Positions 4,581 to 52,451 of a stretch of 64,000 nt of DNA are shown here, one piece after another. Below the pieces are notes generated by a model that was not told the DNA's origin, did no database searches, and saw nothing but the letters and a program-made list of their open reading frames with translations. The translations under genes were made by a program, and so were the position numbers. Within the stretch, counting starts at the first letter, position 1. Each line of letters opens with the position of its first letter. The DNA comes from Myxococcales bacterium. Its GTDB lineage: Bacteria > Myxococcota_A > Polyangia > Polyangiales > GCA-016699535. The stretch lies in contig JACKDX010000001.1 of NCBI GenBank assembly GCA_020633325.1, positions 1,522,179-1,586,178 on the forward strand, read 5' to 3'.

Positions 4581-6290
4581 CTAGTTTCGCATAAGAAATC
4601 CAAATGAAAATCCGTGCGCGCTGACTTGTGTGCTGGCCGCGACCTGGGAACTATCGCCCATCACTTCGCGCAAGAGATACGTGACAGGTATTCCCACCAA
4701 TGGTAGCGAGGTCAACAGAACCATATCACCGAGCCCGGAGTTTATCTTTTCGTGAAAGCACTGCCCGCTCTGGGTGCCCCTGACGGTGCACTCTGACGGC
4801 ACGAGCGCCGCAATTGTCCCTAATGCTGCGCCGGTGAGACCGATCCCCCCAGCCAGCCATGCCCACCACGGTACGCCAGGCTGGGCAGGCAGCCAAAAAT
4901 GCCACGACGCGCTGAGCGAGAGTGCGCCCAGGCCGCCAAACAGCCAATGCCAGCCCCGTGTCCCGCCCTCGCCCGAGGCGTCGACATAGTGCTGGCGCAG
5001 GATCCAACCCGTGCCGAGGCCCGCCACTCCCAAACCGGCCAGCCCAGCGCCAAGCCATATAGGGCCTATGTCATCGTTCTTCTCCACTTCGGACGGCATA
5101 TCGAGCGAAGCGGGATGCCAGGGCTTGGCCTCGATGGGCCGGGCCGAGCTCAAATCGACGGACCGCTCACTGATCAGCTCGTTGATGGCCGTGCTTGCGG
5201 CATCCCAGGCGAAGCCATCGCCCTTCGGGGTGAGGCGCAGCCAGACTGAGGCTACGATTTGGTTGCGCGCCGGGACGAAACGGTCGATGCGCACCCGCCG
5301 CTCGCCCAGGGGAGCGACGACAAAGACCTCGCTTGCGTTGGCCGCATCGGCGAGTTTGTGAAGGTCCGCGGTCAAACGCGTGCTCATGATGCCCGGTGTG
5401 GCGTAATGGAGGCCGAGCTCACCATCGTCGGTGGAGAAGGCGCGATCGAAGACGCTGTCGATGACGACGCGCAAAGAATCGGCGCCCAAATGGACGCGGT
5501 GCACTCGACTCGCGCCCGACACGGGACACTCAAGTTGCGTCCAGTAGGAGCCGCCGGGCAACGGGCCACTTTGAAAGGGCGTCTGTCCGTAGCGCCGGCC
5601 GTTGAGAAAGACCGCACAGTTTGACTCGGTGCTGTTGATGGACAACGTGCCGTGCTTTTGCGCGTGCAAGTCGCTGTCCGCCTTCATGATCAACGACACC
5701 ACCTCTGGGGGATGAAGATGCGTGCTAGGTCGAGCATCCGGCACGAGACGTCGGCACTTGAGCGCGTAGCGGTATGCCTCATCGATCTTGCCGTCGTAAT
5801 GAAGGGCCCTTACCTCAAGCAAACAAATGTCAAATATGCGGGCTGCGTCTTCGTCGCGACGGTTGGTGCCATCGAGCAGCGTGTCGAGCGGGTTGAGGCA
5901 GGCTTCGACCGTTTGCTGCGTGCGTTTGGCTTGGCCGTCCACAATGTAGTTCAAGGCGCCGTCCCAACATTGCTGGAGGGTGTGACGCTGTTTGTCGTCC
6001 ATCTGAAACATGGGCCGGGAGAAGTTGTTTTCAAACCAACTTGTGGCCTCGCGCCCGGTGTAGACCGGAAAGCCAATCGCCGTCATCGTGTCTTCAAGCG
6101 AGCGCGTCGCGCCTACGGCATCTTCGCGCGCTTGCGGAGATCCGGTAGCCATCACCAGTAGCCACCTGGGGGAAGAATCGCCGGCCATGGCGGAAAGGCT
6201 CGTGCCCATGACGGTCAAAAACACCGCATACCCCCGCCAATGCCTCAATGGATGCCGCCACACCGAGGGCGAAGGTAGCAAACAATACAC
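4581..6290 (-). CDS. Large membrane-anchored protein with a PEGA-like domain; function unknown
   Basis: 569-aa ORF. Hydrophobic N-terminus (YAVFLTVMGTSLSAMA). PEGA-like LSINSTESNCAVFLNGRRYGQTPFQSGPLPGGSYWTQL. Several C-terminal hydrophobic helices (IWLGAGLAGLGVAGLGTGW, WWAWLAGGIGLTGAALGTIAAL). A 9-nt gap separates it from the next gene. Confidence 0.7.
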   Translation of the reverse strand: MYCLLPSPSVWRHPLRHWRGYAVFLTVMGTSLSAMAGDSSPRWLLVMATGSPQAREDAVGATRSLEDTMTAIGFPVYTGREATSWFENNFSRPMFQMDDKQRHTLQQCWDGALNYIVDGQAKRTQQTVEACLNPLDTLLDGTNRRDEDAARIFDICLLEVRALHYDGKIDEAYRYALKCRRLVPDARPSTHLHPPEVVSLIMKADSDLHAQKHGTLSINSTESNCAVFLNGRRYGQTPFQSGPLPGGSYWTQLECPVSGASRVHRVHLGADSLRVVIDSVFDRAFSTDDGELGLHYATPGIMSTRLTADLHKLADAANASEVFVVAPLGERRVRIDRFVPARNQIVASVWLRLTPKGDGFAWDAASTAINELISERSVDLSSARPIEAKPWHPASLDMPSEVEKNDDIGPIWLGAGLAGLGVAGLGTGWILRQHYVDASGEGGTRGWHWLFGGLGALSLSASWHFWLPAQPGVPWWAWLAGGIGLTGAALGTIAALVPSECTVRGTQSGQCFHEKINSGLGDMVLLTSLPLVGIPVTYLLREVMGDSSQVAASTQVSAHGFSFGFLMRN

Positions 6291-19040: not shown

Positions 19041-21461
19041 GTGGATTCTGCCCGCCCACGGTTGCATGCGATAAGAAACGCGGCGCGGTCGCATGTGTTC
19101 ATCGGAGCCTTGGCGTTTGGCGCCGTTGAAATCCTGATCACTTTTGCCAAAGGCTATCGGTATTTTCTTGGGTGGCACGACGTTTTCGTTTACGTGGTGA
19201 CTGCGTTGCTTGTCGCGGGCGCGTGCGTACGCGGGGCGCAGCTGGTGGTGTCTATGCTGCTAGGCCGCAGGATGGCGAAATGCTCCTTAAACCGCAAGCG
19301 GCGGGGCGCCATCGCCTTGGCAGTATTTGCCGCGTGTGCGCTCGTGCTGGACGGCACCCTGTATGTGCGTTTGTATGCTAAGTGGCACGCGCTCCTCACT
19401 CTAGGTGCGGTCTTCGGAATCGCGGCGGCGATCCCCCTTTGGCAGAGACCCGATCAGGCGCAGCCTTTCGGCGCAAGAGGGGGACACGGTCGCGGGATGA
19501 CAAGGCATGTGGCAGGCTTCGGGCTGAGCTTTGCACTTGGAGCTATCGCGCTTTTTTGGTTAAATGTCGGCGCGCCAAACGCGAGTTGGGTTGCGCGTGA
19601 TTATGCGGTGCTTACGGGAAAGCTTATCGCGTGGCTGCCATCTGCCACTGGGCCCGAGGTGCTCCATCCTTCGTTGGCACGGGGCCCGGATAAACGTGTC
19701 CGCCACCGCGTTTCAACGGGCGGGATCGACCTGAGCGGAAGTGACGTGCTCTTGGTCACAGTCGATGCATTGCGCGCGGATTGTCTTTCGGAAAAGGGTG
19801 GTGGCAGGAACGCTCCCTACCTTGATGCGCTTGCCAAACAGAGCATGGTCTTTCGCCGCGCCTACACACCGTCGCCCAATACCTCCTATGCCTTGAGTAG
19901 CTTGTTGACGGGCAAATACGCGCGCTCGCTCGATAGGCTGGGCGGGAATATCAATGCGTCTGTCACGCTCGCCGACATCCTCAATCGCGCGGGTTACCAA
20001 ACGGCGGCATTCTACCCACCAGCCATGTTTGCTGTGGATGGTCATAAGCTTGCTGAACTGCGTGCCAGGGGTTTCGGTTTTCGTTACACAAAGGAAACGT
20101 CAAGCAATGCCGAGACGCGGGTTCAGGAGCTCGCTGCGTTTATGAGCCACGCAGATGCGCGTCCGGTATTTGCGTGGGTGCATTTCCTTGAGCCTCATGA
20201 ACCCTACGAGCCAACCGCGAGATTTTATCGCGGGGATAGCCAAAAAGAGCGCTATGCGGCCGAGGTTGCAAGGGCGGATAAAGCGATACATATGCTTGTG
20301 GATCGCTTCGGCCAGCGCGAGAAGGGCATGCTTTTGATATTGAGTGCCGATCATGGTGAGGAGTTTAACGAACATGGAGGCCAATACCACGGGAGTACAC
20401 TCTATGATGAACAGGCGCGGGTGCCTTTGCTGTGGTTTGCGCCAGGTCACATCAAACCCCAAGCGAGTGATGTGCCGGTGGAGCTTGTGGACGTTGCGAC
20501 CACGCTCCTTTCACTGTTGGGTTTGCCGTCCGATCCACGTATGGCGGGAGATGATTGGAGCGGAGTGATCGGAGGGGGCCCGCCACCTGCGACTCACCTC
20601 GCCTTTGCCGAAATCAAGAATCTGCGCATGGCGTTTGACGGCCGCTATAAAGCGATATGTCTTTCGGATCTCAACCGATGCCAACTGTTTGACATAATGC
20701 GGGATCCCACGGAGATGCACAATCTCGCTCTTGACATGCCGGAACGCTCCAAAGAGATGGCGCAAGAGCTTGCCGCATTTTACGCGGCGCTTCCTGCACA
20801 AGAACAGCTGCGGTTTGAGGACGAGACCGCGTGGCCCGAAGCCATGGCGCGTGCGCGGCTGGGCGATGCGTCCGCGGCGCCCGCGCTAATGCCGCTGCTC
20901 GGTGACGATAGTCCCGGGATGCGGGCTGCGGCCGTTCGGGAGCTGGGCATGCTGGGTTATGATGCTGCCCGCTCGCCGCTCAAGACGCTCGTGCGTTCCG
21001 ATCGGTCTTTGCGCGTGCGGGCCGAATCGGCCCTTGCCCTTGTGCGGCTAAAGGACCACACGCAGATTCCTTCGCTGCGGGCATACCTGAGCCAACCGCA
21101 GGTTTTAAATGAAGCCTGGTCCGGCCAATATGTGCGGGAGGCGGCGTTGACATTGGGAGAAACCGGCGACAGAGCTGCAGGTTCGATTCTCATCGAGTTG
21201 GCTCGTGATGAGAACGAAGATCTCGAGCGCCGCGAGGTGGCCATAGTCATCTTGGGTCGCCTGAAGCTCCCTCAAGCCTTGGATGCCTTGATTCCCCTTT
21301 TAGCCGACGGGCATCTCGGTGTGAGGGCAGCTGGTGCGCTCGGTATGATAGGCGGCAAGCGTGCTGAACAGGCGCTACGGAAACAGCTTGAGCGCGAACC
21401 TTACCCCCAGGCCCGAGCGGCCCAGCAAAAGGCGCTCTTGAGGATACAGGCAAAGCAGTAA
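19041..21461 (+). CDS. Membrane-anchored sulfatase-fold (alkaline-phosphatase superfamily) protein with C-terminal HEAT-like repeats
   Basis: About five N-terminal hydrophobic helices. Sulfatase-fold motifs VLLVTVDALRADCL, TPSPNTSYALSSLLTG, LSADHGEEFNEHG. The C-terminus has repeated xxVRxxAxxALGxxG units (MRAAAVRELGMLG, LRVRAESALALV, LGVRAAGALGMIG). GTG start. Confidence 0.75.
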   Translation: MDSARPRLHAIRNAARSHVFIGALAFGAVEILITFAKGYRYFLGWHDVFVYVVTALLVAGACVRGAQLVVSMLLGRRMAKCSLNRKRRGAIALAVFAACALVLDGTLYVRLYAKWHALLTLGAVFGIAAAIPLWQRPDQAQPFGARGGHGRGMTRHVAGFGLSFALGAIALFWLNVGAPNASWVARDYAVLTGKLIAWLPSATGPEVLHPSLARGPDKRVRHRVSTGGIDLSGSDVLLVTVDALRADCLSEKGGGRNAPYLDALAKQSMVFRRAYTPSPNTSYALSSLLTGKYARSLDRLGGNINASVTLADILNRAGYQTAAFYPPAMFAVDGHKLAELRARGFGFRYTKETSSNAETRVQELAAFMSHADARPVFAWVHFLEPHEPYEPTARFYRGDSQKERYAAEVARADKAIHMLVDRFGQREKGMLLILSADHGEEFNEHGGQYHGSTLYDEQARVPLLWFAPGHIKPQASDVPVELVDVATTLLSLLGLPSDPRMAGDDWSGVIGGGPPPATHLAFAEIKNLRMAFDGRYKAICLSDLNRCQLFDIMRDPTEMHNLALDMPERSKEMAQELAAFYAALPAQEQLRFEDETAWPEAMARARLGDASAAPALMPLLGDDSPGMRAAAVRELGMLGYDAARSPLKTLVRSDRSLRVRAESALALVRLKDHTQIPSLRAYLSQPQVLNEAWSGQYVREAALTLGETGDRAAGSILIELARDENEDLERREVAIVILGRLKLPQALDALIPLLADGHLGVRAAGALGMIGGKRAEQALRKQLEREPYPQARAAQQKALLRIQAKQ

Positions 21462-21477: not shown

Positions 21478-22482
21478 CTAAGACGGCGTTCGATCGAGCC
21501 ACACGCCATGCTCAGCCTCGATGGCATCGACGATGGCGCGCGAAAACTCATGCGGGAATCGTTCGCTGCGGTCCCACCCCCCCGGGCTAAAGGTGTTGAT
21601 TTCGACGACTTTCGCGCCTGACAGATCCACGCCCGCCCAAAAAAGCCCCTGCTTAATGAGAAACTGACCCACGGACCGCGCGACCTCGTCATAGCTTGAG
21701 GGAAGTGTTATGGCGGAATCCCTGGCGCCTGCATGAACATTGTTACGGAAATCACCGTGGGCAGCCTTTCGAAGCACCGCGAGTGTCCGCTTTTTCCGAG
21801 AAAGGGGCACCCCCCGGACGTAAAACACCCGATACTCTTCGTGTCGGGCTTCGGGAATGAAACGTTGCACAATCGCGTAGTCCTCTGCGCTAACGATTTC
21901 AAGCACCGAGCGGAGGTTTTGATGCCCGGCACTCTCGAAGAAAAAAATGCCCTCGCCGCGGGAGCCATTCAACGGCTTGACGATGAATGGCGCATCGAGG
22001 GTCTCCGCAAATGCCAGCATATGTGAAATGTCCCGGCTTACCAAGCTCTCGGGGACCCACGCTTCTGGGAGGCCCATCAGATAGGTTTTGCTCGAAAACC
22101 GCAGCAGCACATCGGGATCATTAAGCACAAAGGTGCCGCCGCGTTTTGCCAAAGACAAAAGATGCAACGCTGCCTCGTGTTGCTGCGCATGTTCGCGGTC
22201 GCGGCCCGGATTGCTACGAATCCACACCATTTCGGATGCACCAAGCGCATAGCGACAAAGCCCCGGATCGACCAAAATGCGTGGTTCGACAACGGACGGT
22301 GCACGCAACACTTGAGCGTTCACCCACACACCGCCTGCCTGTGTAGCTTCCAAGTCGGAAACGCCACACGCATGGACTTGGTAGCCTCTCGATAGAGCTT
22401 CGTTTGCCAGCAGCCACGTTTTCAGCCGCTCCTGCGTTTCTCGGCGATCGTTGACGACGATCGTGACGCGCTTGACGGTCAT
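21478..22482 (-). CDS. ATP-grasp ligase, glutathione-synthetase (GshB)/RimK-like
   Basis: PFIVKPLNGSRGEGIFF, YAIVQRFIPEA, FRNNVHAGA, and WAGVDLSGAKVVEINTFSPGG (E-x-N Mg site). ATG 22482 forms an ATGA overlap with the upstream stop. Confidence 0.75.
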   Translation of the reverse strand: MTVKRVTIVVNDRRETQERLKTWLLANEALSRGYQVHACGVSDLEATQAGGVWVNAQVLRAPSVVEPRILVDPGLCRYALGASEMVWIRSNPGRDREHAQQHEAALHLLSLAKRGGTFVLNDPDVLLRFSSKTYLMGLPEAWVPESLVSRDISHMLAFAETLDAPFIVKPLNGSRGEGIFFFESAGHQNLRSVLEIVSAEDYAIVQRFIPEARHEEYRVFYVRGVPLSRKKRTLAVLRKAAHGDFRNNVHAGARDSAITLPSSYDEVARSVGQFLIKQGLFWAGVDLSGAKVVEINTFSPGGWDRSERFPHEFSRAIVDAIEAEHGVWLDRTPS

Positions 22483-23495
22483 GCCTGAGCCGCATGGCGC
22501 CGATGGAACATCGCAGTTTTGCCCTTCCAAATGATACCAAGGTGCAATATTCGCGAACCCGTTTGGGCAACTGGGTTGACGGACTTGCCAATGACGATTC
22601 CCGCAGTTGGACAGCGATACTCCGCGGTGCGATCCCCGTAAATATCCGTTATTCGCGCCACGATTTCGCCCTTTTTAACGTGATCCATCACACTGGGCAG
22701 GACATCAAGCAATCCACCATGTTGCGTGTATAACCAATTCGAGTGCTCGCAGAGGACGGGTTCTGGGCCAAGGGAGACGGGGCGCTTAGGGAGCATGTGC
22801 ACCTCAGAGAGCAAGCTCCTCAATCCGACCAGCGAGCGGCGAATGTATTCCACCTGAAACCGCTGTGGATCGCGAATTTCCACGGTAATGGACGGAATAC
22901 CGAGTTGCATCGCAGCGCCGCGAAGCGTGTAGTCCGAGGCGGGATTGTGAAGGATAATTTGTGGACGCTGCAAGTAGGCCATTTTGGCGCTGATCTCATG
23001 CGTCATATCCGCCCGCACATAAAGAGAGTTCGCGCGTCCGAAACTTGCGGTATGTAGGTCAACCAAGTAATCGAAACAATGGATGATGCGTTCCTGCAAA
23101 CGAAAGGCGTAGACTTCCGCGACGCTGCCGTCCGGTTTGCCAGGCATGATGTGGTTGAGATCGCTGCCGTCCACGAAGTAACGCTCGTGATTGAGAAATC
23201 CAGGAACATTGACGACGACGACGCATACGATGGTGCCTCGCAGCTGAGCGAGGTCTATCGAGCGCAGAAGGCGATGAATAACCGGGATGCCGTTGAGCTC
23301 GTTGCCGTGAATGGCCGCGGTGATACCAAAAACGGGTCCGGAACGCGTCCCGCGAGCCACGACTACGGGCACAGCGATAGGCTGGCCGGTGCCATCATGG
23401 ATTAGCTCGACGCGCAGGCGGGTTTGCCGGCCCTTGCGTAACTTGCTCGGGTCTAGGCGCGAGCAGATTTGTGTGGGTGGGCTTACCTGAGGCAC
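22479..23495 (-). CDS. Succinylglutamate desuccinylase/aspartoacylase (AstE/AspA) family zinc hydrolase
   Basis: GPVFGITAAIHGNELNGIPVIHRLL (H-x-x-E zinc motif), and DLHTAS further on. About 338 aa, typical for the family. Confidence 0.75.
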   Translation of the reverse strand: MPQVSPPTQICSRLDPSKLRKGRQTRLRVELIHDGTGQPIAVPVVVARGTRSGPVFGITAAIHGNELNGIPVIHRLLRSIDLAQLRGTIVCVVVVNVPGFLNHERYFVDGSDLNHIMPGKPDGSVAEVYAFRLQERIIHCFDYLVDLHTASFGRANSLYVRADMTHEISAKMAYLQRPQIILHNPASDYTLRGAAMQLGIPSITVEIRDPQRFQVEYIRRSLVGLRSLLSEVHMLPKRPVSLGPEPVLCEHSNWLYTQHGGLLDVLPSVMDHVKKGEIVARITDIYGDRTAEYRCPTAGIVIGKSVNPVAQTGSRILHLGIIWKGKTAMFHRRHAAQA

Positions 23496-24958
23496 AGCTC
23501 CTCCATCAGCGCGGGATCGGGATTGATCGAATGGAACAACTTGGTGCGAAACTTCCCTTTGCTGGTGACCAGGCTGCTCGCCATGCGATCAATGGCATTG
23601 ACCGAGAGGACGGTCTGCACGTACGCCTCGATAAGATCATCGAGGCCCAATCCGAGTTGGTTGAAGTCGCGGCTGTCCATCAGCAACAAGCGCTCAGTGT
23701 CTGTCGACCAGGTTTCGTTCGACTGTTTGAGCGAGAGATTCGTCCCTAGCATATCCCAGGAACGCTTGGCGCTGTCGAGCGTCTCAGTGAGCGGCGCGCG
23801 TGCGCGCCGGGCATAGACAGCAACCGGGAAAAACCCATCCGGACCCGCGCCCACCATTAAACGAATATCCACGACATAAATTTGTCCGCGTCGGTCAGGC
23901 ATGGTTCCCACATGATAAAGTTGACCATAAGGTGAGCGCGAACTCCACTTTGTGTTTCCAATCAACGCCTGAACGATGAATCGGTCGTAGTGGTGCTCTT
24001 GGTCCATGAACGCTTCGAGCTCCTCAGCACTTGTGATGGTGAACACCCCCTGCCCCGCGTTGGAGTAGGGAACTTTGACGACCGCAATGCCCCCCATCCG
24101 TGACACAAGCTGGGGTACCTGCGCTTTCGGGACATCGACAAGGGTTTCTGGGAAACGAATCCTGAGACCCGTAGGCTGAAGTTCACCGTTTTGTACGTCA
24201 TAGGCTTTGGCTGCGAGGAGCTTGTTGCGGCCGCCTGCAAGGCATACCAAGACAGGATTAAAGACCACCGTTCGCGACAGGGGTGGAATGCGATTCCAGG
24301 GTCGCTGGGTCACGTAGCGCAAGGCGCCGCGGATGGGGCGCCACGCCTGGTCGGGACCGCGGGCTTCGAGAATGCCGTCGTCAGTCGTGCGAACGGAAGC
24401 GTTAAGAGCGTGATCCTGTAGATGAAGCAGCAATACCGTCTCGTTGCTCAAGTCTGCCAGTGCGGCAGCATATCCAGAGGCCTCCATCAGGTTCTTGTCG
24501 TAAAACACTGCCAGATCCCCCCGCGGGACATGGCGGCGTTTTAGAAGCGGTAAAAATGCTTTTGAAAGCAGGTCCGTGTATCCGCCATATTCAGATGCCT
24601 CTTGGATATGGGGCATGGATTTCTGCCCCGACGGGCTTGAGTTGGTTTCGATCACTACCAGCTGTCGCCGTCCCTCCGCGGTGGCCACATGAAAAAGATC
24701 GCACCCTGCCCACCGAAAGTGCTTCGGCTCGATGGTCAAAAGTGCGCGCACGGAGTCTTCATCAACCTCGGGGTGCAAGTGGCGGTAGCGCCGAACGATG
24801 CGTTCATTGCCAAGCGAAAAAAAATAGCTCAAGAGCGGATGCACATGCGCGTTGAGGACGCGTTCGTAGAAGTGGGACACACGGTGAAAGTTCCCGGGCT
24901 CGACAAACCGACTCGAATAGAGGTGCGGCTCTGACAACGTGGTGATCGGCTCCCTCAT
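23483..24958 (-). CDS. ATP-grasp/TTL-like amide ligase candidate, possibly circularly permuted
   Basis: ATG 24958 (MREPITT) forms an ATGA overlap with the upstream lipoprotein stop. VVIETNSSPSG (E-x-N-like) sits at residues about 101-111. IAVVKVPYSNAGQGVF sits at about 291-306, followed by RFIVQALIG and YVVDIRLMVGAG..FFPVAVYARRA (TTL-like strand pattern). Confidence 0.45.
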   Translation of the reverse strand: MREPITTLSEPHLYSSRFVEPGNFHRVSHFYERVLNAHVHPLLSYFFSLGNERIVRRYRHLHPEVDEDSVRALLTIEPKHFRWAGCDLFHVATAEGRRQLVVIETNSSPSGQKSMPHIQEASEYGGYTDLLSKAFLPLLKRRHVPRGDLAVFYDKNLMEASGYAAALADLSNETVLLLHLQDHALNASVRTTDDGILEARGPDQAWRPIRGALRYVTQRPWNRIPPLSRTVVFNPVLVCLAGGRNKLLAAKAYDVQNGELQPTGLRIRFPETLVDVPKAQVPQLVSRMGGIAVVKVPYSNAGQGVFTITSAEELEAFMDQEHHYDRFIVQALIGNTKWSSRSPYGQLYHVGTMPDRRGQIYVVDIRLMVGAGPDGFFPVAVYARRARAPLTETLDSAKRSWDMLGTNLSLKQSNETWSTDTERLLLMDSRDFNQLGLGLDDLIEAYVQTVLSVNAIDRMASSLVTSKGKFRTKLFHSINPDPALMEELCLR

Positions 24959-25290
24959 CGATGCTTCGCCTCGGGCCGAGTGCGCTTCAATCTGCGGCAT
25001 CGTTCAAGTGTGTGGCACGCACGTCGCGCGCGTTCGCAGCGAATCTGCGCATCGGCCTCATCGAGGTCGTCAGCCAGATCACAGATGTGCTGAGAGGCGT
25101 GGCAACCCCGTTTCTCGACAGCGCGGCTAAAGGGAGCCGTGGGGTTCGAGCGCCCACAGGCCAGGAGGGCCTCGGACACTTGGGCTTCGCGGATTTGGAT
25201 ATCGCGATAGAGCTGATGGGTGTCGGCTCCGGCACAGCCCAACATCCCAAGGACGACACATACCAGCCACGCGTGGCGCCGAAGGCCCAT
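24955..25290 (-). CDS. Small Cys-containing lipoprotein (111 aa)
   Basis: MGLRRHAWLVCVVLGMLGCAG (lipobox MLGC). Five further Cys in the mature part. Confidence 0.55.
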   Translation of the reverse strand: MGLRRHAWLVCVVLGMLGCAGADTHQLYRDIQIREAQVSEALLACGRSNPTAPFSRAVEKRGCHASQHICDLADDLDEADAQIRCERARRACHTLERCRRLKRTRPEAKHR

Positions 25291-25323
25291 CGGAGCAGTC
25301 TACAAGAAACCCAGGGTGATGCA

Positions 25324-27492
25324 CTAAGGGAGTGCGCCATTCAGTTTCAGGTATGCCGCCGGAGAATCCTGTCCCGCAAAAGCGCGAATGTCGCGCCGGG
25401 ATGTCCCTTCGCCGGCTTGGGGGTGCCGTGCGGACAGGCGGTATCGCCCGGGAGCCACCTCTAGGCGGAAACTCCCTTTTTCGCCTGTCGTGGCGCTTTC
25501 CTCCCATAGAGGTGGGTCTCCAAAAGCCACTTGGGCTCCGGGTACTGGATCGCCATGCCGATCGACGACTTCGCCGGAGATACTGCCGGCGGGCTCAAGC
25601 TCGATGCTGTGTACATCGACCTGCGACAAGCCTGATGAATGGGGAGTGAGAACGGCAGTTTTTTCCGCGGGAATATACCCGGGCGCGCTAAAAGTTAAGG
25701 AATAATTTCCGGCGATTAGTCGCGAAATCTCGAATTTACCCGAAGTGTTGGCATGGGCCGTGCGGGCTTCTCGGGAATCTTCGAGCAGGCGGGCCGTTAT
25801 TGTGGCATTACCAATGCCAATGCCTCGATGTTTATCAAAGATCTGGCCGGTTATCGCGCCCCCGGGATGGAGCTCAATCGTGAGATCGTCTCGCTCAGCG
25901 ACCTGAGATTGTTGATAGAGCGCAAAATCCGCGTGCTCAACACTCAGCGAATACGGTGGCTCCGGCAGTCCTGAAAGCGCGAACCGACCGTCGCTGCCGG
26001 TCACCGTGGAACGCCGAACGCTGCTAGTGCGCACCGTGACTTGCGCGCCGGCGACCCCAAAACGCCCGCGCTCCCGCACTTGTCCTGCCAGGGTAAAGGC
26101 CGCATGGGCGAGCCTTAGCGTGACCGCGTGTCTCATCCCCGGCTGCACCTCGAGAGTGGTGCGCGCGAGCGACTCACGTCCCCCATAAGCATCAATCTCC
26201 ACCACCCCAAAGAGGGAGTCGACTTGGAATCTCCCGTCGTTTCCACTGAGCGTTTGTCTGGGCCAGGGTTCGCGCGCCACTTTGACCTGGACGCGCACGT
26301 GGGGGACAGGCAGGCCCACAGCATCCATCACTTGGCCATCGATGCTGCCGCCTTTGCTGAGCATTATCGTGATGTTCTTTAGGGTGGCGCCCGCCTTTAC
26401 TATTAGCGGATTGCTGAACGACCAGGCGTACGACGGGTGACGCGCAATAATTTGCAGCTTTCCTGAAGGGACTCCCATGAGGGAAAAGTGGCCGGTGCCG
26501 TCTGACACAAACCGGCTGTCAACCGGGGCTGGGTTTGCGCTTTCGGGTAAGGCCAACGGTGTGTGGGGTATGCGCGGCACCTTCCCATAAGTCACGCCGA
26601 GTTCTCCTTGAGGATATACGGGCGTCGGTCCGTTCATCTGTGCGTCAAAAAGCGCATCACGAAACACCTCTGTGTTGGCCGAAAGCAGGATAGGCATATC
26701 ATCGGTTTCGCTACCCATGAGTTCCAAAGAAGCCCCGGCTATGGCTGATCCACTTTCGTCCACGAGACGACCACTAAGCACCGCGCCCCGTTCGAGTGTG
26801 AACGTGATAGGTGGTCCACCTGGCGCATGTTGCGCTCCGATGAGCGGCACATAGCCTGCCGCGCGCACAGAAATGCGGTGAATCATCGCGCGGAGCCCCG
26901 CCATATGAAAGCGCCCCTCGTTATCCGTACGGGTGGCTTTCGGAATGAACCCGAGCGCGTCCTCGCTGATGATGACCTGTGCGTTGGCAATGGGTTTGTG
27001 CGTGCCCACATCCCGCACCACGGCGCTCAAGGTTTGTCCTGGTTTGAGGACCAGCTCGACCTCCCGAGATTCCCCATCCTTAAGCAAAAGGCCTTCAAGC
27101 GGATCGGCAACCAGCTTCGCGTGCGTGGCGCGTATTTCGTATATCCCCTCGGGCACGCCGGTGATATGAAAACGTCCTTTGCTGTCAGTGACTGCTTTTC
27201 GTGCGGGCCATACTCCGCTCCCGGCAAAGATGACTTCTACCTGGGGCATGGGGAGCGCGTGCTCGTCGTGCACGTAACCATGAAAGGCACCCGTGGCATT
27301 GGCTTGAATGTGGGTGCTTGAGCTGAGCTTGGAATCCTCACCCAGCGACGCCAGGGGCTCCCTACCTTTTAAGCTGGAAGGAGAGGGGCGGGCGGGGTTT
27401 GGAACGTCGGGCCGAAGGGCTAGCATCGCGAGCGCGACAGCCAAGAGCGGGAGATTGGGACGTCGCATTTTGCGTAGTATGCTTTGGCCCAT
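25324..27492 (-). CDS. Secreted protein made of about seven carboxypeptidase-regulatory-like (CarboxypepD_reg, beta-sandwich) domains
   Basis: Recurrent units of about 80-90 aa of the type G-x-V-x-D...G-x-P-(V/I)-x-x-A-x-V...(T/S)-D-x-x-G-R-F-x-(I/L)-x-G-(L/V)-P-x-G-x-Y (e.g. TDSKGRFHITGVPEGIYEI, TGSDGRFALSGLPEPPYSL, TGEKGSFRLEVAPGRYRL). Signal peptide MRRPNLPLLAVALAMLAL. Start is uncertain (ATG 27492 or 27468; the ORF extends to 27585). Confidence 0.75.
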   Translation of the reverse strand: MGQSILRKMRRPNLPLLAVALAMLALRPDVPNPARPSPSSLKGREPLASLGEDSKLSSSTHIQANATGAFHGYVHDEHALPMPQVEVIFAGSGVWPARKAVTDSKGRFHITGVPEGIYEIRATHAKLVADPLEGLLLKDGESREVELVLKPGQTLSAVVRDVGTHKPIANAQVIISEDALGFIPKATRTDNEGRFHMAGLRAMIHRISVRAAGYVPLIGAQHAPGGPPITFTLERGAVLSGRLVDESGSAIAGASLELMGSETDDMPILLSANTEVFRDALFDAQMNGPTPVYPQGELGVTYGKVPRIPHTPLALPESANPAPVDSRFVSDGTGHFSLMGVPSGKLQIIARHPSYAWSFSNPLIVKAGATLKNITIMLSKGGSIDGQVMDAVGLPVPHVRVQVKVAREPWPRQTLSGNDGRFQVDSLFGVVEIDAYGGRESLARTTLEVQPGMRHAVTLRLAHAAFTLAGQVRERGRFGVAGAQVTVRTSSVRRSTVTGSDGRFALSGLPEPPYSLSVEHADFALYQQSQVAERDDLTIELHPGGAITGQIFDKHRGIGIGNATITARLLEDSREARTAHANTSGKFEISRLIAGNYSLTFSAPGYIPAEKTAVLTPHSSGLSQVDVHSIELEPAGSISGEVVDRHGDPVPGAQVAFGDPPLWEESATTGEKGSFRLEVAPGRYRLSARHPQAGEGTSRRDIRAFAGQDSPAAYLKLNGALP

Positions 27493-27568: not shown

Positions 27569-28552
27569 ATGACACCCAGCGGCATTCACCAAGAGGGCTC
27601 CGAGCAGCCGATTGTGTTGCGATTTTTTGTGGAGCACGAATTCGCGGGCGTGCGTCTCGACCGATTCGTGCAGTTGCGCATACCCCGGCTTTCGAGGACC
27701 CGCGCCCAGGCCATCATCAAAGCGTGCGCGTTTCGGGAAGACGGCTCACGTCGCCGTCCCAGCGATAAGGTCAGGGCGGGAGAAACGGTCCTGCTCGTGC
27801 GGTCCCGTTTTGAGGAGCCTGATGCACCGAGGGAGTTCGGCATTATTTATGAGGACCAGGAGCTGTTGATCGTGGACAAGCCCGCGGGCCTGCCCGTTCA
27901 TCCGAGCGCCACGTATCACCGCAACACATTGACCTGGTTGCTGAAGGAACAGTTTCCGGAGAATCCTCCCCGGATCGTGCATCGCTTGGACAAGGAAACC
28001 AGTGGCGTGTTGGTGTGCGCGCGCAGTCTCGCGTCCGAGCGGGCGCTTAAGCAGTGTTTCGAACGCCGCACGATGCAAAAGGAGTATCTGGCGATTGTGC
28101 ACGGGACCGTGAAACCCGACGAGGGCCGTATCGAGTTACCAATGATTGCGGCGCCTGAACAATTCCATATGTTGATGCGCGTTTGTGATAAAGGTACGGG
28201 GCTTATGGCGTTAACGGACTTCAAGGTGCAAGCACGGGGATCTCGGTATTCGATGTTACGGCTTTTCCCGCAAACCGGACGTCAGCATCAGCTGCGGGTG
28301 CATCTTGCGGCGCTTGGCCATCCGATCGTGGGGGATAAGCTTTATGGGCGGGATGGAATGGCGCCGTTCTGGGAGTTTGTACGCCACGGGATGAGCGTGG
28401 AGCTTGCGAAATCGTTGGGGCATTGGCGACATGCGCTTCATGCGTGTACGCTGCGTATGCCGCGTTTGGGGACGCAGGCCATGATGACGTGGGAGGCTCC
28501 ATTTCCAGAAGACTTAAATCGCGTATGGGAGGAGCAGTGGTGTCAGCCGTAG
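27569..28552 (+). CDS. RluA-family (RluD-like) pseudouridine synthase with an N-terminal S4-like domain
   Basis: VHRLDKETSGVLVCAR catalytic-Asp motif. LIVDKPAGLPVHPS. HQLRVHLAALGHPIVGDKLYG. Confidence 0.9.
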   Translation: MTPSGIHQEGSEQPIVLRFFVEHEFAGVRLDRFVQLRIPRLSRTRAQAIIKACAFREDGSRRRPSDKVRAGETVLLVRSRFEEPDAPREFGIIYEDQELLIVDKPAGLPVHPSATYHRNTLTWLLKEQFPENPPRIVHRLDKETSGVLVCARSLASERALKQCFERRTMQKEYLAIVHGTVKPDEGRIELPMIAAPEQFHMLMRVCDKGTGLMALTDFKVQARGSRYSMLRLFPQTGRQHQLRVHLAALGHPIVGDKLYGRDGMAPFWEFVRHGMSVELAKSLGHWRHALHACTLRMPRLGTQAMMTWEAPFPEDLNRVWEEQWCQP

Positions 28553-48699: not shown

Positions 48700-50019
48700 A
48701 TGTATCGCCCCCGATGGCTACAACCCGTGTTGTGGGGATTGGTCAGCTTCGCTGTCGCCTGCGATTTAACCAACCCGGGCGTCGCGACGCCGGATGCCGC
48801 CATCTACTTCCCCGTAGCCTTGGCCTTATCGCCCCAAATGTGCGGCTCTGGCCCGTGCACACTCTATGTCGCAAACTCCAACTTTGATCTTAGATATCGT
48901 ACCGGCAGCATGCAAGCGCTCGATTTGGAACGGGTCGGGGCGGCGGTACGCGACTGTGGCGAGCCCCCGTGTGAGTTTCCGGACTATGGCAGCTTCATTC
49001 GCCCCCACGGCGAGGTGTTGATTGGTTCGTACGCCGGGGGCATCGCTGTCTCTCCTGAAGGCGATAGAGTGTATGTGCCCATCCGCAGCGATGCGAATCT
49101 CACCTATATCGATGTCTCGGCGGATGGCGGCTTGGATTGTGGAGGACGAGGGGAGAAACATGAATGTGCCTCCGCACATGAGCGCGGGCGGCAAGGCTCG
49201 AGCAATGCCCGTGGCCTCAGTATGCCCCGCGACCCCATTACCGTGCTGGCCGGACCTGTTGGCCCCGCGCCCGGAGGTGGGCAGTCAGGCAATTTCATCG
49301 TGACCGGCCATGGTGACGGAAGCGTGACCTTATTCCTAGAGCAGGACGAGGGGGGAGGCATCAAAGCACCGGTGCTGATCGATGTCGACGATGGATATCC
49401 AGAGGGCCTCAGCGCGCTCGACTACGATTCGCTTACGGCGACGTTATACGGAACAACGCGCGCCGAAGCATTGTTTGTAAGCGGCGGGATCGCCGTAAAC
49501 CCCACCTTGGTGGAGCGCTCGTTTGTCTATCAATCGGCCAGCTGGCGCTACGCGGGACTTGATGACGGAAGCGACACTCGGGATGTGGCGGTTGATGCAC
49601 AGGCAAGACGTGCGTATGTCATTTCTCGACGGCCCCGTGCGCTGCTCATCGTGGATCTAGATGCGCAAGCGAGTTCGGGACAGGTTTCGGTCTCAGGCAT
49701 GGTTCCTTTGGGTGACGGGCCTTCCAAGGTAAAGGTCGGTTATTTTAATGAGGCAAACAAACGTTTGATCTTCGTAAGTTGCTTTGATGCACCGGCCATT
49801 CACGTGATAGATGCAGACTTGAGGAGACTGAGCGCGGTCATCACAGGATTTGGTGGACCGTTTGACATCGCGGTCGATCAAGCGCGCGGTTTCATTTACG
49901 TCGCAGATTTTAGCAGCTCGGTGATTCGCGTGGTGGATATCTCCCAGTTGACAGAAGGGTTGGGAGCAACAGTCGTCGCGACGTTGGGAGAGCCGCGCTC
50001 GGTGAAGGTGGTCCAATGA
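48700..50019 (+). CDS. Beta-propeller repeat lipoprotein (YVTN/LVIVD-like repeats)
   Basis: Lipobox SFAVAC. Recurrent strand motifs LYVANSNFD, VYVPIRSDANLTYIDV, AYVISRRPRALLIVDLD, LIFVSCFDAPAIHVIDADL, IYVADFSSSVIRVVDIS. Confidence 0.7.
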   Translation: MYRPRWLQPVLWGLVSFAVACDLTNPGVATPDAAIYFPVALALSPQMCGSGPCTLYVANSNFDLRYRTGSMQALDLERVGAAVRDCGEPPCEFPDYGSFIRPHGEVLIGSYAGGIAVSPEGDRVYVPIRSDANLTYIDVSADGGLDCGGRGEKHECASAHERGRQGSSNARGLSMPRDPITVLAGPVGPAPGGGQSGNFIVTGHGDGSVTLFLEQDEGGGIKAPVLIDVDDGYPEGLSALDYDSLTATLYGTTRAEALFVSGGIAVNPTLVERSFVYQSASWRYAGLDDGSDTRDVAVDAQARRAYVISRRPRALLIVDLDAQASSGQVSVSGMVPLGDGPSKVKVGYFNEANKRLIFVSCFDAPAIHVIDADLRRLSAVITGFGGPFDIAVDQARGFIYVADFSSSVIRVVDISQLTEGLGATVVATLGEPRSVKVVQ

Positions 50020-52451
50020 CAGGCCGCATCCGCACTGGCACAGTCCTAGCCACACTGGTTTCTGGGTATTTGGCCGCGTGCGGCTCGGACCCCCGCGTGC
50101 TCGATCCCCCGAGCTTTGATCGCTCCGAGCGCCTCGAGTGGGCATGTTTCGGCAAAGCGCAGGGTGTGGCGGTGCCGCTTGAAAAATGCCGTGTTATCGA
50201 GGGACAGACGCTCCCTGAGCATCTGCGTCTTCACGTACTTGTGACACAAACAGCGCGCGGGGAGATTGGGGCCATCGACATTGACTATGCCGATGCGAGC
50301 AAGAGCCGCAGGGTCGATAACGATATCCGCGTGCCAGGTTTCACATTTCCAGCCGTCGGAGAAATCCCTGCTGCGCTCGTGGTCCCCACCCAGCGCCCCG
50401 ATATTACCTACACGGCTAATTTTGGTTCGAACGACATCACACTTCTCGCGACGGCAATATTCCGCGCCAGCACGCTTCCGCCTTGGCCGGAGCAAGCGGC
50501 GTCAGTGCCGTTGCCGGGAGCGCCGACTGACATGGTGCTCTCCCCCGATGAAGATGCGCTTTTCGTCGCGCTGCCCGAGCTCGGCGCAGTCGGGGTGCTA
50601 AAAATCGCCAGTAACGGCGCGCTTTTTCCTCCGACGTTGTTGCCTTTGACCACGCCTGCGGGGATGGACGTCACGTTGTCACAGGAAGCAGACCCTTACG
50701 TGAAAGTATGTCCGGCAGATGCCCGCCTCAGCCCGACTGATGCCAGCGTAGTCCCACCTGCGCGCTGCATGCAAGGCGAGTGCGCGCAGGCGTCTCCCAG
50801 GCCCTGGGCGCTTGAAGTGGATGCCATCTCCCGTCGGCTTCTCGTCGCCGATGCGTCGTTGCCTGTGGTGCACGTGATTGACGTGGATCTATTAAAGGAT
50901 GGGGATGCGGGCGCGGAGCTTACGCCCGTCAACGTCGGCTCGCCAACTGTGGATCTAACGCTGAGCCCACCTGTGCCGAGGGCGCTTGTTGGCACGTGTG
51001 ATCCCGTCAATCCCAGTGCTGCATGTGAGCGGTATCTGTATGCGCTCGATGCCATCGACGGCTCGGTAATTCCCATTAACTATTCCGACGGCTCTGTCAT
51101 TGCTGTCGCGTCGGGTTCGCAGGGACGGCCTGATCGCATTCATCTGGCTGCGCCGGGCACCTCGCTTGCGCTCATCGCGTCGGATACTGACACGCCCGTG
51201 GTGTGCACCCCGGGCAGCGATATCGACGAACGCGCGGGCCCTAATCAGCTGCGAGGGGTGTTCGTGGCCGTACCGTTACGAAATGGGCTCGTGCAATTTA
51301 TTGATGTGTGGGATCTCGATGCGCCATGTCGCGGCGGTCCGAAGTGCGACGACCTGGCCAGTGAAACCGGAGGCAGTGTGTACATCGGGCGCCATCGCGC
51401 TAGGCTGGTGTCTGTCAGCAATGGGGATGTGGGGCTTTTGGCGAGCCCGACCGTGACGACGCTCTCGAGTGCGGCCACGTTTCCGCCAACCGGTGTTACC
51501 GAATCCGATCTCTTACCCGATCTTGCAGCCGTCGGCGATTGCCCTCCCGATCAACAGCGTGGCTTTCCCGACGCGGCGTTTGAAACGGACATCCTTGTTT
51601 GTGCGACCTCCGATCCCTGGGAGAGGACCGTCGAGACCTGGGCGGCGACCTGGCAAGGAGAGCTTCCCGGGGCCAGCGGGGGCGGGGGGCGCCTCGTGGC
51701 CGAAGGGCATAATATTACAGCTACAACGAATTTTTGCGGTGTTGGTGTAATTGGGGCCGCTGATATTGCGGATTCTGGCCTTAGCGATAGCGATCCCGAG
51801 TTCGGTTACGACGGCGACAGGGTAGTGATCATGTCGAACCTGCCCGTAACTGCGCCTCAGGATTGCCAGTCCCTCGTCCAGACGGGATTATCGGGAAGAA
51901 CCCTACCGTTGGCGTTTGCCGTGGAAATGGCGAAGCCAGATGAGTTGGTGCTGTCATCTCAAACAATCGGCTCGGTGTCGGCGAGCTTTGAGCGCGTCGC
52001 TGAGTGTTTTGGGGAACTCGTTCAGTTCGCTGTCACCGCGAGGGACGCCTACTTGGTGAAGGGCGACAGGTCGGGGGTGCGTCATCGGGTGATTGAAGAG
52101 AACGGTCGCTGTCTCGTCGATAGGGCGCTCGATGTGCGCCATCAAATGCGAGCATTTTCGGGAGTCGTTTACACGAATGGGGCGTTGAGTTTCAAGCTGG
52201 CCCAGCCCAAGGCCGCTGTTCCAGAAGGGGAAGAGGTTAACGTGTACTTCCCCCTGAGGGAGCTCTTACGCCCGATCACTATTGATGCCGGCGCATCGAA
52301 CATCCGGAATACCGCGGCGGGAGACGGCACCCTTCCGAGCTTTATCAGGTTTAGCACGAGCAATCAGCGACTTTATACCGTAGACTCCGCCCTTAGCGGG
52401 GTGGTCCAGTTTGATGTGACGCCCCTGGCCGCTGAGAGCTTTTTTGAGTGA
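50016..52451 (+). CDS. Large lipoprotein with beta-propeller-like repeats
   Basis: ATGA overlap with the upstream gene. Lipobox YLAAC. Motifs LFVALPELGAVGVLKI, LLVADASLPVVHVIDVD, LYALDAIDGSVIPINY, VFVAVPLRNGLVQFIDVWD, LYTVDSALSGVVQFDV. Confidence 0.65.
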   Translation: MTGRIRTGTVLATLVSGYLAACGSDPRVLDPPSFDRSERLEWACFGKAQGVAVPLEKCRVIEGQTLPEHLRLHVLVTQTARGEIGAIDIDYADASKSRRVDNDIRVPGFTFPAVGEIPAALVVPTQRPDITYTANFGSNDITLLATAIFRASTLPPWPEQAASVPLPGAPTDMVLSPDEDALFVALPELGAVGVLKIASNGALFPPTLLPLTTPAGMDVTLSQEADPYVKVCPADARLSPTDASVVPPARCMQGECAQASPRPWALEVDAISRRLLVADASLPVVHVIDVDLLKDGDAGAELTPVNVGSPTVDLTLSPPVPRALVGTCDPVNPSAACERYLYALDAIDGSVIPINYSDGSVIAVASGSQGRPDRIHLAAPGTSLALIASDTDTPVVCTPGSDIDERAGPNQLRGVFVAVPLRNGLVQFIDVWDLDAPCRGGPKCDDLASETGGSVYIGRHRARLVSVSNGDVGLLASPTVTTLSSAATFPPTGVTESDLLPDLAAVGDCPPDQQRGFPDAAFETDILVCATSDPWERTVETWAATWQGELPGASGGGGRLVAEGHNITATTNFCGVGVIGAADIADSGLSDSDPEFGYDGDRVVIMSNLPVTAPQDCQSLVQTGLSGRTLPLAFAVEMAKPDELVLSSQTIGSVSASFERVAECFGELVQFAVTARDAYLVKGDRSGVRHRVIEENGRCLVDRALDVRHQMRAFSGVVYTNGALSFKLAQPKAAVPEGEEVNVYFPLRELLRPITIDAGASNIRNTAAGDGTLPSFIRFSTSNQRLYTVDSALSGVVQFDVTPLAAESFFE

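Follow-up and report, generated by a model that had tools for sequence, protein, structure and literature searches.

Gene organization of the locus

The window analysed here, 64,000 nucleotides in length, is a chromosomal segment of a metagenome-assembled genome of a Myxococcales bacterium (assembly GCA_020633325.1, contig JACKDX010000001.1, positions 1,522,179 to 1,586,178). Five genes, called A to E below, follow each other on its minus strand between positions 21478 and 27492. Three of them, C, D and E, encode a protein with a predicted ATP-grasp fold, a zinc amidohydrolase and a second ATP-grasp ligase. The genes for these enzymes stay together across bacterial phyla, and they may form a cassette that makes and trims a small metabolite.

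Gene A (25324-27492, in an open reading frame (ORF) that extends to 27585) encodes a secreted beta-sandwich protein with multiple CarboxypepD_reg domains. Gene B (24955-25290) encodes a cysteine-containing putative lipoprotein of 111 residues with a lipobox-like motif that is visible by eye. Gene C (23483-24958), the anchor of the cassette, encodes a protein of 491 residues that is assigned to the ATP-grasp fold from its predicted structure. Gene D (22479-23495) encodes an AstE/AspA-family zinc amidohydrolase ("predicted deacylase"), recognized by the AstE_AspA_cat profile and by its predicted structure, and gene E (21478-22482) a GshB-like ATP-grasp ligase matching the GSH-S_N and GSH-S_ATP profiles. 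All five frames are present where a first-pass annotation of this DNA had placed them, and the junctions that it described can be read directly in the sequence. The stop of A at 25324 is separated from the start of B at 25290 by a 33-nucleotide gap, B and C overlap in an ATGA at 24955-24958, the stop of C at 23483 and the GTG start of D at 23495 produce a 13-nucleotide overlap, GTGCCTCAGGTAA, and D and E share a second ATGA at 22479-22482.

The C/D overlap is plausible but not certain, as it depends on the choice of the start of D. The NCBI model of D (MCB9708525.1) begins 26 codons downstream, giving 312 rather than 338 amino acids (the region concerned is 23417-23495), and would, if right, abolish the overlap. 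The 338-residue form, which is the one in the ENA/Logan gene calls, is favoured because alignments of homologues reach its residues 1-14. The start of A may be at 27492 or at 27585. Protein C is identical (100%) to MCB9708526.1 (locus tag H6714_07075), and the product name of both C and E at NCBI is "hypothetical protein".

Protein C

Homologues of protein C at about 60% identity number more than 3500, and clustering at 50% reduces them to 924 representatives. There is no sequence match to Pfam, NCBIfam or the PDB, whether the query is C alone, a profile of 40 members or each member in turn (E ≤ 10). In the comparison of each member with Pfam, 2-4 of the 40 give sub-threshold values, with E 0.099 for RimK and 0.091 for ATP-grasp. 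The curated ATP-grasp sequence models of Pfam and NCBIfam are not matched above threshold, and the profiles of eukaryotic-type glutathione synthetases, PF03917 and PF03199, are unmatched even at E ≤ 10.

The AlphaFold2 model of C is confident (pLDDT 89, pTM 0.91). When compared with solved structures by Foldseek, it matches about 30 ATP-grasp ligases at E ≤ 1e-3 with a probability of 1.0. The best matches are the eukaryotic-type glutathione synthetases 1m0w, 5oes and 2hgs, from yeast, potato and human (E 5e-9 to 3e-8, probability 1.0), to which C has 13-14% identity and a TM score of about 0.4. The model also matches 3n6x, a CP_ATPgrasp_2 protein, and 9cjn, the E-64 biosynthesis enzyme Cp1B. 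On its predicted structure C thus qualifies as an ATP-grasp protein, and its likeness to the eukaryotic-type glutathione synthetases is one of fold only. The first-pass description of C as "ATP-grasp/TTL-like" is correct in its first half, which is recovered by AlphaFold2 and Foldseek but not from sequence, whereas no TTL match was found to sustain the second.

An E104-x-N106 motif near the N-terminus and, farther on, K295 as putative phosphate-binding lysine and a Gly-rich PYSNAGQG loop, all candidate ATP/Mg-binding elements, are invariant in 40 C sequences. By their order, these elements would fit a circularly permuted arrangement. C appears, from its model, to represent a new ATP-grasp family that has a circularly permuted topology like that of the eukaryotic glutathione synthetases and for which there is no curated model.

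Protein D

The profile AstE_AspA_cat (PF24827) matches D with E 5.8e-33 and 114.5 bits, against a cut-off of 25, and D carries an HGNE motif, in agreement with the earlier description of an AstE/AspA hydrolase with an HxxE zinc site. In a Foldseek comparison of the AlphaFold2 model (pLDDT 91.5), the best match is DoeB/EutE (6twm; E 9e-28, TM score 0.80, root-mean-square deviation 2.6 Å). It is followed by structural-genomics relatives, then by CphZ (8ein, TM score 0.75), and then by AstE, ASPA and aminoacylase 3. The protein carboxypeptidases CCP5, CPA and MpaA reach TM scores of only 0.42-0.49.

Residues H63, E66, H148 and E206 are invariant in the D family and align with the HGDE, DFHS and TTE motifs of DoeB. 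D thus keeps the H-E-H zinc ligands and the catalytic glutamate of the AstE/AspA family. It nevertheless scores below the equivalog cut-offs of DoeB (TIGR02994, 73 bits against 403), ASPA (21 against 180) and AstE (20 against 306). Residues 112-115 of the D family read D-x-N-H, where DoeB has N-R ("LNH" as opposed to "LNR"), and the histidine is at least 90% conserved.

Protein E

The profiles that match E are GSH-S_ATP (PF02955, 1.9e-32), RimK (3e-14) and GSH-S_N (PF02951, 3.3e-8). E aligns with Escherichia coli GshB (1gsa) over its full length, from residue 24 to residue 324 (E 3.7e-22), and the alignment takes in the KPL, xxxR and R-x7-R-x-N loop motifs and the D/E/N magnesium motifs. By this alignment E has the two-domain GSH-S_N plus GSH-S_ATP architecture of GshB in its closed-loop form. 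The first-pass label, a GshB/RimK-like ATP-grasp enzyme, is therefore sound, although GshB is far closer than RimK. E does not reach the equivalog cut-offs of GshB (TIGR01380, 129 bits against 299; NF003573, 150 against 272; NF009110 (PRK12458), 195 against 408), of RimK (NF007764, 31 against 331; TIGR00768, 65 against 143) or of the cyanophycin synthetase CphA (TIGR02068, 20 against 850). With C, D and E all below the curated thresholds, profile searches assign none of the three to a known pathway.

Conservation of the cassette

A genome scan yielded 181 homologues of C, of which 80 loci were kept and searched with the window proteins by tblastn. The order C, D, E on one strand is found in 36 of the 80 loci and C followed by D in 19. 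C stands alone in 17, many of them on truncated contigs, and the remaining 8 have permuted orders (C-E-D, D-E-C, E-C-D, or C followed by a convergent E-D). Presence was counted in the 54 loci having at least 2.5 kb on both sides of C. In 43 of these D adjoins C, and E is present near C in 30. The estimated gap between the stop of C and the start of D is often 5 nucleotides or less.

By their record titles, the carriers belong to at least six phyla, including Myxococcota, Cyanobacteria, Bacteroidota, Rhodothermota, Planctomycetota and Chloroflexota. Among them are filamentous Cyanobacteria (Leptolyngbya, Phormidesmis, Leptothoe), Saprospiraceae, Rhodothermales and Schekmanbacteria. C and D evolve at equal rates, their median identities to the window proteins being 58.5% and 57.6%, and the value for E is 33.3%. 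In these sequences D is the tightest partner of C and E is a frequent third member, so that the conserved unit reads as C and D plus a second, replaceable ligase, in most cases E. The linkage that had been noticed among the three enzymes in one genome is accordingly kept across phyla.

A divergent C homologue with 35% identity lies on a contig (L082, 5322-10577; also L083) that is apparently archaeal because of its Cbf5/Pus10, TrmB and AsnC neighbours. There the C homologue is arranged tail-to-tail with an AstE_AspA gene, and an AsnC/Lrp regulator is also present. The place of E is taken by a different circularly permuted ATP-grasp protein of 434 amino acids, having weak matches to CP_ATPgrasp_2 and GSH_synth_ATP, and this gene is followed by a DUF3335 C39-like peptidase and then by a MazE/ParE pair. 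Other divergent homologues lie mostly on short contigs, so that this is the only informative locus among them.

The C family also occurs in the eukaryotes Podila verticillata, Trichuris suis, Trichinella pseudospiralis, Fonticula alba and Cyanidium caldarium (proteins P0241, P0267, P0259, P0294 and P0396; loci L086-L088). In Podila verticillata it is found in three assemblies, as an intron-containing gene on a 1.27-Mb contig, and the Podila and Cyanidium genes have typical nuclear neighbourhoods. The eukaryotic proteins are 41-55% identical to bacterial ones as compared with 34-45% to those of other eukaryotic lineages, and the two trichinellid nematode proteins are 57% identical to each other. 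These identities give hints of separate transfers. In the contexts and proteins inspected, no eukaryotic C gene has D or E nearby or is fused to either. Long C homologues yielded no informative Rosetta-stone fusion and contain no Pfam domains. The Trichinella gene model is merged with CTF18, and a D-like part was not found in the Trichuris and Fonticula proteins.

Surroundings of the cassette

In the 80 loci, a search up to 1.5 kb from the cassette revealed only shadow frames of neighbouring genes and no conserved ORF of 25-130 amino acids. Nor is any further gene family shared across lineages beside C, D and E, the other clusters being lineage-specific or antisense shadow ORFs. No Rfam match was found in the window or in 11 loci. 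NtcA sites are essentially absent upstream of the cyanobacterial copies, with one strict match in 12 loci. The PADLOC anti-phage defence models match none of the five proteins, and a role in defence was rejected on this ground.

In 7 of the 12 cyanobacterial loci, a conserved element lies 25-70 nucleotides upstream of the start of C, in intergenic DNA that is otherwise not conserved (L006 at ~860-885, L011 at ~5925-5950, L018, L019, L023, L025 and L036). It has an invariant TTTAAT core with the arms of an imperfect inverted repeat on either side, as in TGCC-ATTTAAT-AAAAGGGCA, and has no Rfam match. The element might serve as a -10 box together with an operator, or else form a small 5' hairpin over the ribosome-binding site.

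In three Saprospiraceae loci (L066, 3233-5583; L073; L075), a protein in which GNAT and carbon-nitrogen-hydrolase domains are fused is encoded upstream of C. A shorter homologue of about 297 amino acids lies farther upstream in the Rhodothermales loci L005 and L016. The Saprospiraceae loci also have, just upstream of C, a conserved ORF of about 214 amino acids that resembles 2OG-Fe(II) oxygenases by eye. These lineage-specific genes could provide an accessory step or reflect plain synteny.

In the window itself, the locus is flanked by housekeeping genes, those for RecG and for a sulfatase-HEAT protein on one side and a divergent RluA-family gene on the other. The sulfatase-HEAT gene (19041-21461, plus strand) is convergent with E, the two stops being 16 nucleotides apart. 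Its 806-residue product has an N-terminal hydrophobic region, a sulfatase domain and C-terminal HEAT/PBS-lyase repeats. Four Ser/Thr kinase genes and the genes for PrkA, GlyS, MutS and AroA lie farther out. Upstream of mutS, at 48700-52451 on the plus strand, are two consecutive ORFs of 439 and 811 amino acids without a Pfam match at E ≤ 1e-5. The base composition is uniform across the region.

Comparison with known systems

The pairing of an ATP-grasp ligase with an M14/AstE-like hydrolase is a theme reportedly noted in comparative genomics by Iyer and colleagues in 2009. Glutathionylspermidine synthetase/amidase is a further case of a ligase joined with a hydrolase. Precedents for such pairs are CphA with CphZ (PMC9974463) and RimK with RimB (PMC12239564), and the first-pass annotation was right to call the theme a recognised one. 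In the papers searched, no description of the C-D-E triad was found; none of them joins "succinylglutamate desuccinylase" with "ATP-grasp", and COG3608 was uninformative.

E shares with the glutathione synthetases of the GshB type (PF02951/PF02955) its two domains and the full-length alignment with 1gsa, but it lies below every equivalog cut-off. C shares with the eukaryotic enzymes (PF03917/PF03199) the nearest predicted fold and an N-terminal E-x-N consistent with the permuted topology, but matches no glutathione synthetase model at the sequence level. Glutathione synthesis differs further in that no gshA is linked to the cassette, whereas an AstE-type hydrolase is. In the cyanophycin system, CphZ is a hydrolase dedicated to an iso-dipeptide that originates from the ATP-dependent synthetase CphA1 and has the same AstE/AspA fold as D (PMC9974463). 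However, D is nearer to DoeB than to CphZ, E is remote from CphA, and no cyanophycinase is linked. The canonical glutathione and cyanophycin readings were both rejected, as E is below the GshB and CphA cut-offs.

The RimK/RimB system, which glutamylates ribosomal protein S6, likewise encodes an ATP-grasp ligase along with an enzyme that undoes the ligation, both being cytoplasmic (PMC12239564). There the hydrolase is a retropepsin, in contrast to the zinc AstE-type enzyme found here; the cassette has two ligases, and E is no RimK equivalog. DoeB/EutE, the N-acetyl-L-2,4-diaminobutyrate deacetylase of ectoine catabolism, is the best match of D in both structure and sequence and shares the zinc ligands and the catalytic glutamate. 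The identity is nevertheless only 22%, the LNR of DoeB is LNH in D, and the partners linked to D are ATP-grasp proteins instead of DoeA/EutD.

Cp1B is an ATP-grasp enzyme of fungal E-64 biosynthesis that couples an amino acid to a dicarboxylic acid by condensation; a second amide-forming enzyme follows it (PMC12568646). With about 486 amino acids it is close to C in length, and it stands beside the eukaryotic glutathione synthetases among the structural matches of C. The Foldseek match is at E 1.5e-6 with 13% identity, and Cp1B differs in belonging to a fungal secondary-metabolite cluster without a hydrolase partner. Judged on sequence, no known pathway among glutathione, cyanophycin, RimK and graspetide systems fits C, D and E together.

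Proposed function of the cassette

We propose, with a probability of about one half, that C, D and E work as a self-contained set of cytoplasmic enzymes by which a small metabolite, acidic and amide-linked, is made and trimmed. This compound would be either an N-acyl-amino acid or a di- or tripeptide with an iso- or gamma-linkage. C would activate a carboxylate as an acyl-phosphate and couple it to an amine, and E would extend the product of C by another amino acid at its free C-terminal carboxylate. The model for this second step is GshB, which adds an amino acid to gamma-Glu-Cys. D would cleave one of these amide bonds, thus either limiting and recycling the product or removing a protecting acyl group. 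C and D would be the obligatory core, and E an accessory step that another ligase may replace.

A cytoplasmic function in small-molecule metabolism is favoured because all the close relatives of D that are characterised have N-acyl amino acids or iso-dipeptides as substrates (PMC9974463) and because E retains the architecture of GshB, which is built for a small acidic acceptor. It is favoured also by the presence of Cp1B, a ligase of dicarboxylates and amino acids, among the structural matches of C (PMC12568646), and by the fact that no gene for a substrate protein or peptide travels with the cassette. The first-pass annotation had left the choice between a small peptide and a tag on a protein C-terminus. 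The structures related to D, the architecture of E and the lack of a substrate gene lean towards the small metabolite and make the tag less favoured.

Several observations weigh against this proposal. E is missing from the neighbourhood in about 45% of the loci, and the structural matches of C have the low TM scores given above. The replacement of the Asn-Arg of DoeB by Asn-His points to a substrate recognition in D that may be unlike that of every characterised relative. No transporter, regulator or riboswitch in the cassette loci (or, for Rfam, in the window and 11 loci) gives a chemical clue to the substrate. That C is so strongly conserved, with about 60% identity across phyla, could be due to a macromolecular partner, and a ligase beside a hydrolase for the same type of bond could equally be a reversible protein modification.

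Alternative explanations

The main rival is a reversible tagging of protein or peptide C-termini, in which C, E or both add amino acids, as RimK does on S6 and TTL/TTLL on tubulin, and D trims them like RimB or the M14 CCPs. The opposing activities of RimK and RimB provide the parallel (PMC12239564), the fold of D is M14-related with CCP5 among its distant structural matches, and the conservation of C would fit a conserved macromolecular substrate. A protein target, if there is one, would need to be universal, since the cassette passes as a unit from phylum to phylum. However, no target gene is conserved beside the cassette, the near structural neighbours of D are all small-molecule enzymes, and E, with 31 bits against the RimK cut-off of 331, is far closer to GshB. 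Tagging is thus unlikely, with the balance of these observations on the side of a small metabolite.

An alternative pathway to a glutathione-like thiol or tripeptide appears more doubtful still. In it C would be an analogue of GshA, forming a gamma-glutamyl-amino acid, E the tripeptide synthetase, and D the enzyme that degrades or recycles the product. Both ligases do resemble glutathione synthetases, C the eukaryotic and E the bacterial type, and E keeps the residues that align with the catalytic loops of GshB. It nevertheless fails all the GshB equivalog cut-offs, and canonical glutathione synthesis has no place for a dedicated AstE-type hydrolase. To our knowledge, the formation of the gamma-Glu-Cys bond is outside the repertoire of ATP-grasp enzymes. 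The Cyanobacteria that carry the cassette are, moreover, expected to own canonical gshA and gshB genes.

The five genes had originally been regarded as one unit coupled to exported proteins, in which the enzymes would modify or supply the secreted CarboxypepD_reg protein A and the lipoprotein B. The CarboxypepD_reg repeats of A are borne out by profile matches (E 1.5e-75), in six stretches rather than the approximately seven repeats counted earlier. B has no family match in Pfam or NCBIfam, and LGMLGC is a plausible lipobox candidate by eye only. The genes are tightly packed, the ATGA overlap of B and C and the 33-nucleotide A/B gap suggest co-transcription in this genome, and the same order A-B-C-D-E recurs in L001, the closest relative. 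However, L001 is the only one of the 80 loci with homologues of A (59% identity) and B (38% identity); the other 79 lack both. Even in L001 the match to B stops about 33 nucleotides short of the match to C, with no evident B/C overlap. C, D and E have no signal peptide by inspection, and the neighbours of the cassette change in every lineage. A and B are lineage-specific neighbours outside the conserved cassette, B being probably co-transcribed. A five-gene system is therefore very improbable, and the notion of coupling to exported proteins was abandoned.

A graspetide or microviridin-type cluster for a peptide made on the ribosome and modified after translation, in which two dissimilar ATP-grasp ligases cyclise a precursor (PMC12848669, PMC8939145), can be virtually dismissed, as the 80 loci have no conserved small ORF within 1.5 kb and no conserved transporter or GNAT partner, the ligases are GshB-like and eukaryotic-glutathione-synthetase-like rather than of the graspetide type, and about 60% identity across phyla is atypical of tailoring enzymes for such peptides.

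Implications

C belongs to a highly conserved family that has no profile model, solved structure or name. In at least six bacterial phyla and, in divergent form, in an apparent archaeon, it is firmly linked with a zinc deacylase, and it occurs also in fungi, nematodes, a red alga and Fonticula. We tentatively suggest that C and D, often with E, may make and turn over a previously undescribed metabolite resembling glutathione, N-acetylaspartylglutamate (NAAG) or an N-succinyl-amino acid across many bacterial phyla, in some archaea and in scattered eukaryotes, and that C may be the founder of a new ATP-grasp family whose ligation specificity is also new. The cassette is small and self-contained and is present in the cultured Plesiocystis pacifica SIR-1, Enhygromyxa salina and Leptolyngbya sp. 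BC1307, so that its function is directly testable. With its product named, central biochemistry would gain a metabolite or a modification, and thousands of genes that are now called "hypothetical protein" could be annotated.

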